43,525 nt of DNA from Escherichia coli (GTDB lineage: Bacteria; Pseudomonadota; Gammaproteobacteria; Enterobacterales; Enterobacteriaceae), in the NCBI RefSeq assembly GCF_003334255.1, contig NZ_QOWU01000046.1; one strand, written 5' to 3'. Positions 31,564-37,594 of this stretch are shown piece by piece. A model generated the notes under the pieces. That model made no database searches. It was not told the DNA's origin and saw nothing but the letters and a program-made list of their open reading frames with translations. The position numbers were made by a program, and so were the translations under genes. Each line of letters opens with the position of its first letter. Position 1 is the stretch's first letter.

Positions 31564-32325
31564 ATGTCGCTCGTTTGTTCTGTTATATTTATTCATCATG
31601 CCTTCAACGCTAACATTTTAGATAAAGATTACGCCTTCTCTGACGGCGAGATCCTGATGGTAGATAACGCTGTTCGTACGCATTTTGAACCTTATGAGCG
31701 GCATTTTAAAGAGATCGGATTTACTGAAAATACCATTAAAAAATATCTACAATGCACTAACATCCAGACAGTGACGGTGCCTGTTCCTGCGAAGTTTTTA
31801 CGTGCTTCAAATGTACCGACTGGATTGCTTAATGAAATGATTGCTTATCTCAACTCGGAAGAACGCAATCATCATAATTTTTCAGAACTTTTGCTTTTTT
31901 CTTGCCTGTCTATTTTTGCCGCATGCAAAGGTTTCATTACACTATTAACTAACGGTGTGCTATCCGTTTCTGGGAAAGTGAGAAATATTGTCAACATGAA
32001 GCTGGCGCACCCATGGAAGCTGAAAGATATTTGTGACTGCCTGTACATCAGTGAAAGCCTGTTGAAGAAAAAACTTAAGCAAGAGCAAACGACATTCTCA
32101 CAGATTCTTTTAGATGCAAGAATGCAGCACGCAAAAAATTTGATACGCGTAGAAGGTTCAGTCAATAAAATTGCCGAACAATGTGGTTATGCCAGTACAT
32201 CTTATTTTATTTATGCGTTCCGCAAACATTTCGGCAACAGTCCGAAGAGAGTTTCTAAGGAGTACCGTTGTCAAAGTCACACGGGTATGAATACGGGCAA
32301 CACGATGAATGCTTTAGCTATTTGA
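31564..32325 (+). CDS. ydeO: AraC-family acid-resistance regulator YdeO
   Basis: 253-aa ORF with a C-terminal AraC-type HTH (IAEQCGYASTSYFIYAFRKHFGNSPK). Confidence 0.9.
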   Translation: MSLVCSVIFIHHAFNANILDKDYAFSDGEILMVDNAVRTHFEPYERHFKEIGFTENTIKKYLQCTNIQTVTVPVPAKFLRASNVPTGLLNEMIAYLNSEERNHHNFSELLLFSCLSIFAACKGFITLLTNGVLSVSGKVRNIVNMKLAHPWKLKDICDCLYISESLLKKKLKQEQTTFSQILLDARMQHAKNLIRVEGSVNKIAEQCGYASTSYFIYAFRKHFGNSPKRVSKEYRCQSHTGMNTGNTMNALAI

Positions 32326-32373
32326 TTATTTGCTAACGAGTAGTCAACCACACACGCTGCGTAAGAATTAAAT

Positions 32374-32406
32374 GGGGCAGCCATTCCCTGCCCCGCGTTG
32401 TTTTTA
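32374..32406 (+). terminator. Rho-independent terminator downstream of ydeO
   Basis: GGGGCAG-ccattcc-CTGCCCC stem followed by GCGTTGTTTTT. Confidence 0.7.
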
Positions 32407-32726
32407 GGCGATATATTTATTGAAATAAATAAGTGACATCCATCACATATTTATGCACTTGCATAACCTGTTGCATGATTATTTATGATCTCAATTCTGC
32501 ATTTTGTCAGTAAAATGCAATAATTTATTAAATATCAATAAATTAGTTGTTTATCGGCGAGAAATTACTTAATAGAACAGAAAGTAATGTCAACGCTTTA
32601 TGGACTGTTTTTTCCCTTTTTTTAGCTAAATCTGCTATCTCTTTATGTGACTAACTTCACTTACATCCACTTATTTCTCTTCGTAAAATTACTTTGGAAT
32701 TAAGTACAATAAGAAGAGGAACATTT

Positions 32727-34409
32727 ATGAAGTCTGCATTAAAGAAAAGTGTCGTAAGTACCTCGATATCTTTGATACTGGCATCTGGTATGGCTGCATT
32801 TGCTGCTCATGCGGCAGATGATGTAAAGCTGAAAGCAACCAAAACAAACGTTGCTTTCTCAGACTTTACGCCGACAGAATACAGTACCAAAGGAAAGCCA
32901 AATATTATCGTACTGACCATGGATGATCTTGGTTATGGACAACTTCCTTTTGATAAGGGATCTTTTGACCCAAAAACAATGGAAAATCGTGAAGTTGTCG
33001 ATACCTACAAAATAGGGATAGATAAAGCCATTGAAGCTGCACAAAAATCAACGCCGACGCTCCTTTCATTAATGGATGAAGGCGTACGTTTTACTAACGG
33101 CTATGTGGCACACGGTGTTTCCGGCCCCTCCCGCGCCGCAATAATGACCGGTCGAGCTCCCGCCCGCTTTGGTGTCTATTCCAATACCGATGCTCAGGAT
33201 GGTATTCCGCTAACAGAAACTTTCTTGCCTGAATTATTCCAGAATCATGGTTATTACACTGCAGCAGTAGGTAAATGGCACTTGTCAAAAATCAGTAATG
33301 TGCCGGTACCGGAAGATAAACAAACGCGTGACTATCATGACAACTTCACCACATTTTCTGCGGAAGAATGGCAACCTCAAAACCGTGGCTTTGATTACTT
33401 TATGGGATTCCACGCTGCAGGAACGGCATATTACAACTCCCCTTCACTGTTCAAAAATCGTGAACGTGTCCCCGCAAAAGGTTATATCAGCGATCAGTTA
33501 ACCGATGAGGCAATTGGCGTTGTTGATCGTGCCAAAACACTTGACCAGCCTTTTATGCTTTACCTGGCTTATAATGCTCCGCACCTGCCAAATGATAATC
33601 CTGCACCGGATCAATATCAGAAGCAATTTAATACCGGTAGTCAAACAGCAGATAACTACTACGCTTCCGTTTATTCTGTTGATCAGGGTGTAAAACGCAT
33701 TCTCGAACAACTGAAGAAAAACGGACAGTATGACAATACAATTATTCTCTTTACCTCCGATAATGGTGCGGTTATCGATGGTCCTCTGCCGCTGAACGGG
33801 GCGCAAAAAGGCTATAAGAGTCAGACCTATCCTGGCGGTACTCACACCCCAATGTTTATGTGGTGGAAAGGAAAACTTCAACCCGGTAATTATGACAAGC
33901 TGATTTCCGCAATGGATTTCTACCCGACAGCTCTTGATGCAGCCGATATCAGCATTCCAAAAGACCTTAAGCTGGATGGCGTTTCCTTGCTGCCCTGGTT
34001 GCAAGATAAGAAACAAGGCGAGCCACATAAAAATCTGACCTGGATAACCTCTTATTCTCACTGGTTTGACGAGGAAAATATTCCATTCTGGGATAATTAC
34101 CACAAATTTGTTCGCCATCAGTCAGACGATTACCCGCATAACCCCAACACTGAGGACTTAAGCCAATTCTCTTATACGGTGAGAAATAACGATTATTCGC
34201 TTGTCTATACAGTAGAAAACAATCAGTTAGGTCTCTACAAACTGACGGATCTACAGCAAAAAGATAACCTTGCCGCCGCCAATCCGCAGGTCGTTAAAGA
34301 GATGCAAGGCGTGGTAAGAGAGTTTATCGACAGCAGCCAGCCACCGCTTAGCGAGGTAAATCAGGAGAAGTTTAACAATATCAAGAAAGCACTAAGCGAA
34401 GCGAAATAA
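32727..34409 (+). CDS. ydeN: Periplasmic sulfatase
   Basis: 560-aa ORF. Start chosen at ATG 32727 (MKSALKK..., AGAGGA RBS 6 nt upstream) rather than the upstream TTG; signal peptide plus sulfatase-family features. Confidence 0.88.
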   Translation: MKSALKKSVVSTSISLILASGMAAFAAHAADDVKLKATKTNVAFSDFTPTEYSTKGKPNIIVLTMDDLGYGQLPFDKGSFDPKTMENREVVDTYKIGIDKAIEAAQKSTPTLLSLMDEGVRFTNGYVAHGVSGPSRAAIMTGRAPARFGVYSNTDAQDGIPLTETFLPELFQNHGYYTAAVGKWHLSKISNVPVPEDKQTRDYHDNFTTFSAEEWQPQNRGFDYFMGFHAAGTAYYNSPSLFKNRERVPAKGYISDQLTDEAIGVVDRAKTLDQPFMLYLAYNAPHLPNDNPAPDQYQKQFNTGSQTADNYYASVYSVDQGVKRILEQLKKNGQYDNTIILFTSDNGAVIDGPLPLNGAQKGYKSQTYPGGTHTPMFMWWKGKLQPGNYDKLISAMDFYPTALDAADISIPKDLKLDGVSLLPWLQDKKQGEPHKNLTWITSYSHWFDEENIPFWDNYHKFVRHQSDDYPHNPNTEDLSQFSYTVRNNDYSLVYTVENNQLGLYKLTDLQQKDNLAAANPQVVKEMQGVVREFIDSSQPPLSEVNQEKFNNIKKALSEAK

Positions 34410-34421
34410 CTAAACCTTCAT

Positions 34422-34447
34422 GCGGCGGATTTTTCCGCCGCCTTATT
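34422..34447 (+). terminator. Hairpin downstream of ydeN
   Basis: GCGGCGG-atttttc-CCGCCGC stem followed by CTTATTG (short U-tract); lies just upstream of the ydeM start. Confidence 0.5.
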
Positions 34448-34460
34448 GAGCGAGATAGCG

Positions 34461-35618
34461 ATGCACGTTACAGCCAAGCCCTCCAGTTTTCAATGTAATC
34501 TCAAATGTGATTACTGTTTTTACCTTGAAAAAGAGTCGCAGTTTACTCATGAAAAATGGATGGATGACAGCACTCTGAAAGAGTTCATCAAACAATATAT
34601 CGCAGCGTCTGGCAATCAGGTCTATTTTACCTGGCAAGGCGGTGAACCCACTCTGGCTGGCCTGGATTTTTTCCGTAAAGTTATTCACTATCAACAACGC
34701 TATGCAGGCCAAAAACGTATTTTTAATGCATTACAAACGAATGGCATTTTATTGAATAATGAATGGTGTGCCTTTCTCAAAGAACATGAATTTCTGGTTG
34801 GTATCTCGATCGATGGCCCCCAGGAGTTACATGACCGTTACAGACGCAGTAATTCAGGTAACGGTACTTTTGCAAAAGTGATAGCAGCCATCGAGCGTCT
34901 GAAATCATATCAAGTAGAGTTTAATACGTTAACCGTCATTAATAACGTTAATGTCCATTACCCTCTTGAGGTTTATCATTTTTTAAAATCTATCGGCAGT
35001 AAACATATGCAATTTATCGAATTGCTAGAAACCGGGACGCCGAATATTGATTTCAGTGGTCATAGTGAGAACACATTCCGTATCATTGATTTTTCTGTGC
35101 CTCCCACGGCTTATGGCAAGTTTATGTCAACCATTTTTATGCAATGGGTTAAAAACGATGTGGGTGAAATTTTCATCCGTCAGTTTGAAAGCTTTGTCAG
35201 CCGTTTTTTGGGGAATGGGCATACCAGTTGTATTTTCCAGGAGTCCTGCAAGGATAATCTGGTTGTTGAAAGTAATGGAGACATTTACGAATGCGACCAT
35301 TTTGTCTATCCACAGTACAAAATTGGAAACATTAATAAATCTGAACTCAAAACGATGAACAGTGTACAACTGACAGCGCAAAAAAAACGGATTCCAGCGA
35401 AATGTCAGCAATGTGCATATAAACCTATCTGCAATGGCGGTTGTCCTAAGCATCGTATTACTAAAGTAAACAATGAGACTGTTTCTTATTTTTGCGAAGG
35501 TTATAAAATCCTTTTTTCAACCATGGTACCTTATATGAACGCCATGGTAGAGTTAGCTAAGAACAGAGTACCGCTTTACCACATTATGGATGTTGCAAAA
35601 CAAATGGAGAATAATTAA
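34461..35618 (+). CDS. ydeM: Anaerobic sulfatase-maturating enzyme homolog (radical SAM)
   Basis: 385-aa ORF starting [21 protein letters not shown] (CxxxCxxC radical-SAM cluster) with additional C-terminal Cys clusters typical of SPASM/anSME proteins. Confidence 0.88.
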
Positions 35619-35671
35619 TAACGCTCTCTTTTAACTCCATTCTTAGCCTCCTTCTTATGACCTTAACAAGG

Positions 35672-35703
35672 CACCCGACATAAATTCCTGTCGGGTGTTT
35701 CGT
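35672..35703 (+). terminator. Rho-independent terminator downstream of ydeM
   Basis: CACCCGACA-(8-nt loop)-TGTCGGGTG stem followed by TTTCG. Confidence 0.6.
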
Positions 35704-35908
35704 CATCATCATCTTCCCTTGCGAAAATCCTGGCTTACGTGGTATGCATCAGGGCATTAGCAATATCCTTGATTATCAATAGCATAACCATAACCACTGA
35801 AAATGAAATATTCCTTTATATTTCATATTGTTAAATGATACTTAAATAAATTTCATCAGTAAATCATTGCCATAGATAATCATTGGATGGCACAATCAAT
35901 TTTCGCTA

Positions 35909-37594
35909 ATGATAACCATTCCCATTACGCTTCGTATGTTGATAGCAAAGTATCTCTGTCTGTTGAAGCCCTTTTGGCTGCGTAAGAATAATAAAACTTC
36001 AGTGTTGTTAATCATTATTATCCTCGCCATGATCCTTGGCGTGGTTAAAATTCAGGTCTGGTTAAACGACTGGAATAATGATTTTTTCAATGCGCTAAGC
36101 CAGAAAGAAACCGATAAGCTTTGGCAGCTTGTCCTTTGGTTCCCTGCCCTGCTGGGGATCTTTGTATTAATATCCGTAAACAAAACATGGTTAATTAAAC
36201 TACTGACTATTCGCTGGCGCGAATGGTTAACAGATTACTACCTTAATCGGTGGTTTGCAGATAAAAACTACTACTTCACGCAGATCTACGGCGAGCATAA
36301 AAATACAGATAACCCTGACCAACGTATCGCTGAAGACATTCTCTTACTGATCAGCAAAACGCTCAGTCTTTCATTTGGCTTCATCCAGTCACTTAGCATG
36401 CTGATCACCTTTACCGTTATTCTTTGGGAAAGCGCGGGTACGCTCTCATTCACTGTTGGTGGAACAGAATGGAATATCCAGGGGTATATGGTCTATACCG
36501 TCGTGCTCATTGTGATCGGTGGAACTTTATTTACCCATAAGGTGGGTAAACGTATTCGTCCGCTTAATGTGGAAAAACAACGTAGCGAAGCGACATTTCG
36601 AACAAATCTTGTGCAGCATAATAAGCAGGCAGAACTGATTGCGCTAAGCAATGCTGAGTCTCTACAACGCCAGGAGTTGAGCGACAATTTTCATACCATT
36701 AAAGAGAACTGGCATCGTTTAATGAATCGTCAGCGGTGGCTTGATTACTGGCAGAATATTTATTCGCGCTCGCTTAGCGTTCTTCCCTACTTTCTGTTAT
36801 TGCCGCAGTTTATTAGCGGGCAGATCAATCTGGGCGGACTGATGAAATCGCGCCAGGCATTTATGCTGGTATCGAACAATTTAAGCTGGTTTATTTATAA
36901 ATATGACGAACTTGCTGAACTGGCTGCGGTTATCGATCGCTTGTATGAGTTCCATCAACTCACTGAACAGCGCCCTACGAATAAGCCTAAAAATTGCCAA
37001 CATGCGGTACAAGTGGCTGATGCGAGTATTCGTACGCCTGATAATAAGATCATATTAGAGAACCTGAACTTTCATGTTTCGCCAGGCAAATGGCTATTAC
37101 TGAAAGGCTACTCTGGTGCGGGAAAAACCACACTGCTTAAAACATTATCCCACTGCTGGCCGTGGTTTAAAGGTGATATTTCTTCTCCTGCTGACAGTTG
37201 GTATGTGTCACAAACACCGTTAATCAAAACCGGCTTACTGAAAGAGATTATTTGTAAAGCACTTCCCCTGCCCGTAGACGATAAATCGTTGAGCGAAGTA
37301 CTGCATCAGGTTGGTCTTGGGAAATTGGCTGCGCGTATTCATGACCACGATCGCTGGGGAGATATTCTTTCCAGCGGCGAAAAACAACGTATCGCCCTGG
37401 CACGATTAATTTTACGACGTCCGAAATGGATATTTCTTGACGAAACTACCTCTCATCTTGAGGAACAAGAGGCTATCCGCTTACTGCGTTTAGTGCGTGA
37501 AAAACTACCCACAAGCGGCGTCATTATGGTTACACATCAACCCGGTGTCTGGAACCTGGCCGATGATATTTGTGACATTAGCGCGGTTTTATAA
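35909..37594 (+). CDS. yddA: Fused permease-ATPase ABC transporter
   Basis: 561-aa ORF with an N-terminal transmembrane domain and a C-terminal nucleotide-binding domain (Walker A GYSGAGKTT; signature LSSGEKQR). Confidence 0.9.
   Translation: MITIPITLRMLIAKYLCLLKPFWLRKNNKTSVLLIIIILAMILGVVKIQVWLNDWNNDFFNALSQKETDKLWQLVLWFPALLGIFVLISVNKTWLIKLLTIRWREWLTDYYLNRWFADKNYYFTQIYGEHKNTDNPDQRIAEDILLLISKTLSLSFGFIQSLSMLITFTVILWESAGTLSFTVGGTEWNIQGYMVYTVVLIVIGGTLFTHKVGKRIRPLNVEKQRSEATFRTNLVQHNKQAELIALSNAESLQRQELSDNFHTIKENWHRLMNRQRWLDYWQNIYSRSLSVLPYFLLLPQFISGQINLGGLMKSRQAFMLVSNNLSWFIYKYDELAELAAVIDRLYEFHQLTEQRPTNKPKNCQHAVQVADASIRTPDNKIILENLNFHVSPGKWLLLKGYSGAGKTTLLKTLSHCWPWFKGDISSPADSWYVSQTPLIKTGLLKEIICKALPLPVDDKSLSEVLHQVGLGKLAARIHDHDRWGDILSSGEKQRIALARLILRRPKWIFLDETTSHLEEQEAIRLLRLVREKLPTSGVIMVTHQPGVWNLADDICDISAVL

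Follow-up and report, generated by a model that had tools for sequence, protein, structure and literature searches.

In Klebsiella pneumoniae, the neighbouring genes atsB and atsA encode a three-cluster radical-SAM/SPASM maturase and a Sec-exported sulfatase of the Ser type, with the active-site signature SxPxR. The maturase gene comes first, and AtsB acts in the cytoplasm, before AtsA is exported. In Escherichia coli, aslA and aslB stand apart and are divergently oriented, unlike an operon that begins with the sulfatase gene and has a hairpin between its genes. The maturases encoded by E. coli aslB and ydeM were reportedly studied together in deletion mutants by Benjdia in 2007. The anaerobic sulfatase-maturating enzyme (anSME) of Clostridium perfringens, anSMEcpe, has been crystallized (PDB 4K36-4K39). 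The ydeN-ydeM locus described here lies at positions 32727-35618 of a 43,525-nucleotide stretch of E. coli DNA (contig NZ_QOWU01000046.1), referred to as the window, and consists of a sulfatase gene and a maturase gene with a hairpin between them. It resembles atsB-atsA in joining a Ser-type sulfatase, predicted to be exported, to a three-cluster maturase, in the reverse gene order. The aslA-aslB genes, from the same two protein families, are the second sulfatase/anSME pair of E. coli.

It is quite probable that ydeN and ydeM form a self-contained operon in which YdeM activates the exported YdeN, while the hairpin reduces the share of maturase that is made. A sequence-only reading of the window had proposed a signal-peptide sulfatase, an anSME-type radical SAM protein downstream of it and a hairpin between the two. 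All three are present, and the hairpin occupies exactly 34422-34447. The surrounding segment is K-12-like E. coli chromosome with the order ydeP-safA-ydeO-ydeN-ydeM-yddA, and a RefSeq record 100% identical to it carries ydeP, safA, ydeO, ydeN, ydeM, yneP (on the opposite strand), yddA and yddB. When 32400-35900 was compared by megablast with all complete E. coli genomes, the region was found in 5383 of 5426 at 95-100% identity, with a query coverage of at least 80% in 5324 of the 5426. The megablast result and the identical record therefore place the subject as the annotated, K-12-type ydeN-ydeM locus. Eight of the 5404 places matched were on a plasmid rather than the chromosome. The gene pair, the family assignments and several of the regulators (CRP, AraC, GadX) are already known from databases and the literature. 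The new points, namely the structural conservation of the hairpin and the obligate pairing of a Ser-type sulfatase with an anSME across phyla, are small additions.

The ydeN gene (32727..34409, + strand; open reading frame table, raw sequence and RefSeq) starts with an ATG at 32727, ends with a stop codon at 34407-34409 and encodes a probably exported Ser-type S1 sulfatase of 560 residues; RefSeq names the identical sequence ydeN. Pfam Sulfatase (PF00884) matches residues 58-408 at 1e-70, covering model positions 1-301 of 301. The signature S132-G-P-S-R-A-A-I-M-T-G (33120..33152, + strand) was located by a pattern match at residue 132 and by alignment, and agrees with (C/S)-x-P-x-R-x4-T-G with Ser in the first place. 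Ser132, encoded by the TCC codon at 33120-33122, is the residue predicted to be converted to formylglycine. In an alignment with PDB structures, it stands opposite the formylglycine Cys of wild-type 9hh3 and the Ser of the mutant 9hh2, so that the alignment check suggested in the sequence-only reading yields a complete S132-G-P-S-R-x4-T-G motif at the right place. The best PDB matches of YdeN are the S1_19 carrageenan sulfatases 9hh2/9hh3, 6bia and 6b0j (E 2e-52 to 1.5e-50, residues 109-436). Metal-binding and catalytic motifs are found at residues 65 (MDDLG), 182 (GKWH), 283 (NAPH), 344 (SDNG) and 362 (GYKS), and in the DD, GKWH, APH and SDNG residues and the Lys of GYKS, YdeN is identical to the solved S1_19 enzymes. 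Codons 1-29 are predicted to form a Sec-type signal peptide: read by eye, the N-terminus MKSALKKSVVSTSISLILASGMAAFAAHA followed by AD (MKSALKK...AFAAHA, then AD) has n, h and AxA regions and a cleavage motif between AHA and AD, and lacks a twin arginine. YdeN reaches none of the NCBIfam equivalog cut-offs (the arylsulfatase equivalog NF010322 gives 124 bits against a cut-off of 481), and accordingly its RefSeq name is only “sulfatase-like hydrolase/transferase”.

Two further observations concern YdeN. Between its DD metal motif and its formylglycine motif, YdeN has 24 inserted residues (85-108; 32979-33050) that are not present in the closest S1_19 crystal structures and are strongly conserved from E. 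coli to Fusobacterium (...DKAIEAA.KSTPT). The E. coli O157:H7 strain M1300706001A has an intact ydeM together with a ydeN that is interrupted by a stop at codon 489 (NNDY*) and labelled a pseudogene in the annotation.

The ydeM gene (34461..35618, + strand; open reading frame table, RefSeq and profiles) encodes a radical SAM/SPASM anSME of 385 residues, with an ATG at 34461 and a stop codon at 35616-35618, and is named ydeM in the same RefSeq record. The TTG at 34446 proposed by the open reading frame finder was rejected as the start because every ortholog begins with M-H-(V/I/F)-T at the position of the ATG, and the sequence upstream of it is not conserved. YdeM scores 505.5 bits with TIGR03942, the anaerobic sulfatase maturase equivalog (cut-off 349.45), over residues 2-364 and profile positions 1-362 of 363, and both the Radical_SAM and the SPASM domains of Pfam match it. 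The family assignments of the sequence-only reading are thus borne out for both proteins, with a signal peptide judged by eye.

Crystallized anSMEcpe (4K36) aligns to nearly the full length of YdeM at E 6e-63. The [4Fe-4S] ligands of anSMEcpe are C15/19/22, C255/261/276/330 and C317/320/326/348 (PMC5682303). The cysteines of YdeM are at positions 12, 16, 19, 103, 257, 263, 278, 315, 318, 324, 328 and 345, and all 11 cluster cysteines pair one-to-one with these ligands. The radical SAM CX3CX2C motif, C12-NLK-C16-DY-C19 (34494..34517, + strand), aligns with C15/C19/C22. In the SPASM region (35229..35495, + strand, by alignment), C257/C263/C278/C328 of the Aux I cluster correspond to 255/261/276/330 and C315/C318/C324/C345 of Aux II to 317/320/326/348, with spacings of Cx5Cx14C and Cx2Cx5Cx3Cx16C. 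The Asp following C278 aligns with that of the active-site Cys-Asp of anSMEcpe. All three Fe-S cluster motifs that the sequence-only reading expected in YdeM can thus be assigned by alignment to 4K36. As side observations, ydeM is split by IS1 in strain 167 and by IS2 in strain FXCREC123.

The spacer between the two genes is 51 nt long. The hairpin (34422..34447 with its tail, + strand; fold and covariation) consists of GCGGCGGA-TTTT-TCCGCCGC at 34422-34441, in which 34422-34429 and 34434-34441 form an 8-bp stem, followed by the T-rich tail CTTATT to 34447. It starts 12 nt past the ydeN stop and ends 19 nt before the ydeM ATG. Seven of the eight base pairs are G-C, the loop is 4 nt long, and the predicted energy is -16 to -18 kcal/mol (centroid -18.2). 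A perfect 8-bp stem with a loop of 3-8 nt would be expected by chance in a 51-nt spacer about 0.005 times (51 x 6 / 4^8). The fold z-score is modest at -2.0, since 6 of 200 shuffles gave an equally good fold. Three divergent E. coli strains have an identical stem, and the loop of one of them carries a single-nucleotide polymorphism. Directly past the tail is a weak Shine-Dalgarno-like stretch, GAGCGAGA (34448..34455, + strand, read from the sequence), and ydeM orthologs have GAGG, GGAG or AGAG in its place. A stem with a T-tract, placed just upstream of the ydeM ribosome-binding site, is how an intrinsic terminator inside an operon is built. Most likely, the hairpin is a leaky terminator of this kind or an RNA stabilizer that would lower the maturase relative to the sulfatase.

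Support for the hairpin comes from comparison with other bacteria. A peptide-pattern scan using one genome per species returned 16 loci, and 14 were compared, the window and 13 others with both genes complete, from Escherichia, Leminorella, Citrobacter werkmanii, Cedecea, Mixta, Grimontia, Psychromonas, three Anaerobiospirillum assemblies and three Fusobacterium assemblies. All 14 have an invariant Ser-type SGPSR sulfatase and, directly downstream on the same strand, an anSME in which every cluster motif is present. In all seven short-spacer gammaproteobacterial loci, the lowest-energy element of the spacer is a GC-rich hairpin at the same position, formed from different stem sequences. These hairpins start at least 10 nt past the sulfatase stop and end 14-20 nt before the maturase ATG. 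Their T-rich tails read CTTATTG, CTTAATG, TTTTTGAGG, TTATTTCC, TTAATTTTC, TTATTTTG and TTTTTTGGAG, each followed by a Shine-Dalgarno-like GAG or GGAG. The run past the stem has 5-6 T in Leminorella and Grimontia, enough for a U-tract (at least five T in eight), and 4 T in Cedecea and C. werkmanii.

A consensus helix of eight pairs was obtained with RNAalifold from a MAFFT alignment of the seven sequences, and for all eight pairs at least one sequence is changed on both sides. Paired bases fill 90.9% of the cells in a pair-count test, and none of 500 column shuffles reached the observed values. When one partner was slid by 1-3 columns, the number of pairs with double changes fell from 8 to 0-2. 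Because of this cross-species covariation, the hairpin is taken to be more than a chance fold; to judge from the comparison, it is a genuine structure under selection among enterobacteria and vibrios, but not obligatory for the gene pair. Two weaker hairpins are present in the Psychromonas spacer. In the three Anaerobiospirillum loci, the spacers are 250-520 nt long, with strong, canonical hairpin-plus-U terminators right after ydeN, whereas the Fusobacterium loci go without such elements. From these varied spacers, the coupling of sulfatase and maturase therefore appears to differ between lineages.

The genes flanking the pair vary by genus and include ThiI/YajL, NhoA, FeoB, a GH4 glycosidase, a NanA-like lyase with an Mgl-like ABC transporter, and a ROK regulator. 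Sugar genes are found near the pair in three of eight loci, a weak hint on the substrate. The neighbourhood was set aside as a clue to the substrate, as the flanks differ in every genus. The genus-specific flanks, together with a GC content of 37-46% for the AT-rich E. coli region, suggest that the two genes behave together as a mobile cassette. In a comparison of E. coli with E. albertii, the ratio of nonsynonymous to synonymous substitution rates (dN/dS; Nei-Gojobori, own script) is 0.013 for ydeN and 0.043 for ydeM, which argues for strong purifying selection on both. The same comparison of 32727-35618 gave proteins that are 96% and 88% identical and a proportion of synonymous differences (pS) of 0.63-0.67, near saturation. 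So much synonymous divergence seems high for these two species; the reason may be an old allele, or recombination at this AT-rich locus.

The promoter region lies in the ydeO-ydeN spacer. A consensus scan found a promoter-like site for ydeN at 32660..32689 (+ strand; -35 CTTACA, 18-nt spacer, -10 TAAAAT) with 9 of 12 matches. Two CRP-box-like sites precede it, each with one mismatch to TGTGA-N6-TCACA: a distal one, AGTGACATCCATCACA (32432..32447, + strand), and a proximal, near-consensus one, TGTGACTAACTTCACT (32646..32661, + strand), about 43 bp upstream of the inferred transcription start. Only four such near-consensus boxes exist in the 43.5-kb window, two of them in this spacer. The position of the proximal box relative to the -10 element would fit a class II CRP promoter. 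On the + strand between 32690 and 35057, the scan found no promoter-like site, hence none directly upstream of ydeM. Just past ydeO, at 32373-32395, a terminator-like bidirectional hairpin, TGGGGCAG...CTGCCCCG followed by a T-run, parts ydeO from the ydeN promoter region.

Several published studies describe the regulation of the locus. ydeN was found to be a CRP target by genomic SELEX (PMC3105977), and AraC binds upstream of it only in the presence of arabinose, with repression reported (PMC3738151). GadX binding upstream of ydeN lowers its transcript (PMC4918353), and at pH 4.4, ydeN is among the most strongly reduced genes, beside mal and xyl genes (PMC10746267). FD&C Red 40, a sulfonated azo dye, induced ydeN as the sole gene (PMC10653809). 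Deletion of araC is reported to raise ydeMN together, and in mice fed a fibre-rich diet, ydeM was up when araC was deleted (PMC10878103). Anaerobic cultures of O157 in rumen fluid yielded YdeN peptides (PMC3936929). According to the authors of a 2024 study, the substrate of YdeN is unreported (PMC10878103), in agreement with the earlier remark in the sequence-only reading that it is poorly defined. With three mismatches allowed, the AraC half-site TAGC-N7-TCCATA matched 304 times where 297 matches were expected, no better than noise, and the AraC site was for this reason not placed.

In the mechanism favoured here, transcription would start at a CRP-dependent promoter upstream of ydeN and would be repressed by AraC with arabinose and by GadX. 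The primary product of ydeN would be a precursor that bears a Sec signal peptide. YdeM, a cytoplasmic protein with three [4Fe-4S] clusters, would oxidize Ser132 in the SGPSR motif of the still unfolded YdeN to Cα-formylglycine, and export of YdeN would probably follow this maturation. Periplasmic YdeN would then hydrolyse sulfate esters of small sulfated molecules able to pass the outer membrane, with sulfated sugars as the most likely class. The GC hairpin with its short T-tract would end or stabilize a part of the transcripts, so that fewer transcripts reach ydeM and the maturase stays below its substrate protein. ydeM would be translated from its own weak ribosome-binding site after the hairpin. 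A radical-SAM maturase is the only known maturation route for a Ser-type sulfatase, with or without oxygen, and not merely an anaerobic option.

Several points weigh against this mechanism. The E. coli tail, CUUAUUG in the RNA, is a poor U-tract: CTTATTGA has 4 T, below the five in eight that define one, and because of these 4 T of 8, the consensus terminator scan did not call the hairpin. The covariation test used only seven sequences, among which the Grimontia row is imperfectly aligned. In Fusobacterium, all three loci have spacers of 43-49 nt with a strong GGAGG ribosome-binding site and no hairpin, so the hairpin is not essential to the pair. Sulfated sugars are a weak suggestion for the substrate, drawn from CRP and AraC regulation and from the closest solved relatives, all of which are carbohydrate sulfatases. 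A literature search found no report of sulfatase activity or formylglycine formation for YdeN or YdeM. Szameit in 1999 and Benjdia in 2007 reportedly observed that E. coli K-12 without added AtsB fails to mature a foreign Ser-type sulfatase. PMC8379841 cites the opposite. Curated Term-seq tables (Adams et al., LB or M63) list no ydeN 3' end, and expression of ydeN under those conditions was very low, about 30 reads per 800 nt (PMC7815308). The hairpin is accordingly called terminator-like rather than filed as a terminator, because of its short U-tract and the lack of a mapped 3' end. Because the U-tract is degenerate in E. coli, any termination there is expected to be partial.

The main alternative is that the hairpin acts as a barrier to 3'-to-5' exonucleases after cleavage of the bicistronic mRNA, which would stabilize the ydeN segment and leave more sulfatase than maturase. 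The stem-loops inside the malEFG and puf operons follow the same stabilizing logic. A stable stem with a weak U-tract in E. coli and E. albertii would suit such a role, as would the conservation of structure rather than sequence. Termination would likewise leave less maturase, and for this reason the two are inseparable on present data. However, a barrier needs no T-run, while one of 4-6 T directly follows the stem in most relatives (Leminorella, Grimontia, Cedecea and C. werkmanii), nor is a processed 3' end reported at the hairpin (PMC7815308); a pure barrier is considered unlikely. The sequence-only reading had offered attenuated or independent expression of the maturase. Attenuation is supported, indirectly, by the conserved hairpin with its T-tract and by a region of Rho termination reported within ydeM (Rho score 3.37, p 5e-5, from very few reads; PMC7815308 supplementary file 2), which fits the weak expression of ydeM in LB. 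Independent expression, by contrast, is unlikely in E. coli because the spacer of 51 nt has no promoter-like site and deletion of araC raises both genes.

Another alternative is that the hairpin is an efficient terminator and ydeM is transcribed from a promoter of its own. The long spacers and strong terminators of the three Anaerobiospirillum loci leave room for such a promoter, but in E. coli the short spacer, the + strand free of promoter-like sites between 32690 and 35057 and the poor U-tract all stand against it, as does the joint rise of ydeM and ydeN on araC deletion, since the AraC site is upstream of ydeN (PMC10878103). This arrangement is considered very improbable in E. coli. About equally improbable is that the cassette is cryptic or decaying in E. 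coli, that is, silenced, never active, kept by inertia and with a hairpin that has no present role. In its favour are the AT-rich DNA, the repression by GadX, by AraC and at pH 4.4, the Rho termination inside ydeM, the premature stop at codon 489 in one O157:H7 strain, the IS1 and IS2 insertions in ydeM of some strains, and the absence of any reported activity. It is difficult to reconcile with the low dN/dS values against E. albertii, with the intact locus in about 98% of the complete E. coli genomes compared, with the retention of every catalytic residue, with YdeN peptides in anaerobic rumen-fluid culture (PMC3936929), or with transcripts that respond to mouse diet (PMC10878103) and an azo dye (PMC10653809).

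Beyond this, a more specific role may be imagined, although it is doubtful as a whole. YdeN could be a periplasmic carbohydrate sulfatase whose substrates are small sulfated sugars of the galactose or GalNAc type, set free from chondroitin, host mucin or glycans of the diet, and could thereby give E. coli a CRP/AraC-controlled route into the cross-feeding on sulfated glycans in the gut. The hairpin would then be a dosage device that fixes a low maturase-to-sulfatase ratio, a design feature of the mobile gammaproteobacterial cassette that is replaced by tight coupling in Fusobacterium. The locus has little significance beyond housekeeping, and two points, the YdeN substrate and the hairpin, are of modest value. 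Given the diet-dependent expression in mice, the substrate may bear on the use of sulfated host or dietary glycans by E. coli in the gut, and the hairpin, with its conserved structure, is a simple case in which one could test how an operon balances a modifying enzyme against the protein that it modifies.

A few other features of the region should be mentioned. About 50 nt downstream of ydeM, a hairpin at 35670..35699 (+ strand, by folding) has the core stem CACCCGACA / TGTCGGGTG, followed by TTTCGT. Its fold z-score is -3.6, and none of 200 shuffles folds as well; it was not called by the consensus terminator scan. It is the probable end of the ydeN-ydeM operon. The yneP gene (35584-35706, - strand), which encodes a small protein of 40 residues, is antisense to the end of ydeM and overlaps its 3' end by 35 nt, and its first codons cross the reverse complement of the 35670-35699 hairpin. 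An Rfam scan of 32000-36200 gave isrK on the minus strand as the sole match, which was taken as chance (20 bits, below the gathering score of 50; E 0.29). In the contig JARKOR010000108.1, from a metagenome-assembled genome of “Candidatus Nanosynbacter sp.”, ydeN is 100% and ydeM 99% identical to the E. coli genes; the contig is almost certainly a piece of E. coli DNA that was wrongly binned into a Saccharibacteria genome.

Among the known systems, the pair would function in the manner of Klebsiella AtsB and AtsA, with which it shares both protein families. YdeM falls under the same equivalog model as the AtsB family (TIGR03942), and YdeN is not an ortholog of AtsA by its NF010322 score, its nearest solved relatives being carbohydrate sulfatases. 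Activity has been demonstrated for AtsA and AtsB, whereas YdeN and YdeM are known here from sequence. YdeM shares with anSMEcpe all three [4Fe-4S] ligand sets and the active-site Cys-Asp, but the native substrate of anSMEcpe is a Cys-type sulfatase and the partner of YdeM is of the Ser type; the similarity is moderate, with 255 bits for the anSMEcpe-type equivalog NF010321 (cut-off 441). The AslB-type equivalog NF010308 gives 364 bits, also below its cut-off (484). By these curated cut-offs, YdeN and YdeM are not orthologs of AtsA, of AslA/AslB or of anSMEcpe.

The active-site motifs of YdeN are identical to those of S1_19, represented by the iota/kappa-carrageenan galactose-4-sulfate sulfatases of Pseudoalteromonas (6B0J, 6BIA) and by 9HH2/9HH3. 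However, the S1_19 enzymes are Cys-type (C-G-P-S-R in wild-type 9hh3), while YdeN is Ser-type and has the extra insertion at 85-108, and the likeness is one of best-hit similarity to structures. The ydeN-ydeM hairpin is a single short stem rather than a repetitive extragenic palindromic (REP) element, and is described here from its sequence alone. In its placement, it nevertheless resembles elements within operons that set gene dosage, such as the malE-malF REP and the Rhodobacter pufBA-LMX element, in both of which a stable stem-loop stands between a highly needed upstream gene and a lesser-needed downstream gene.

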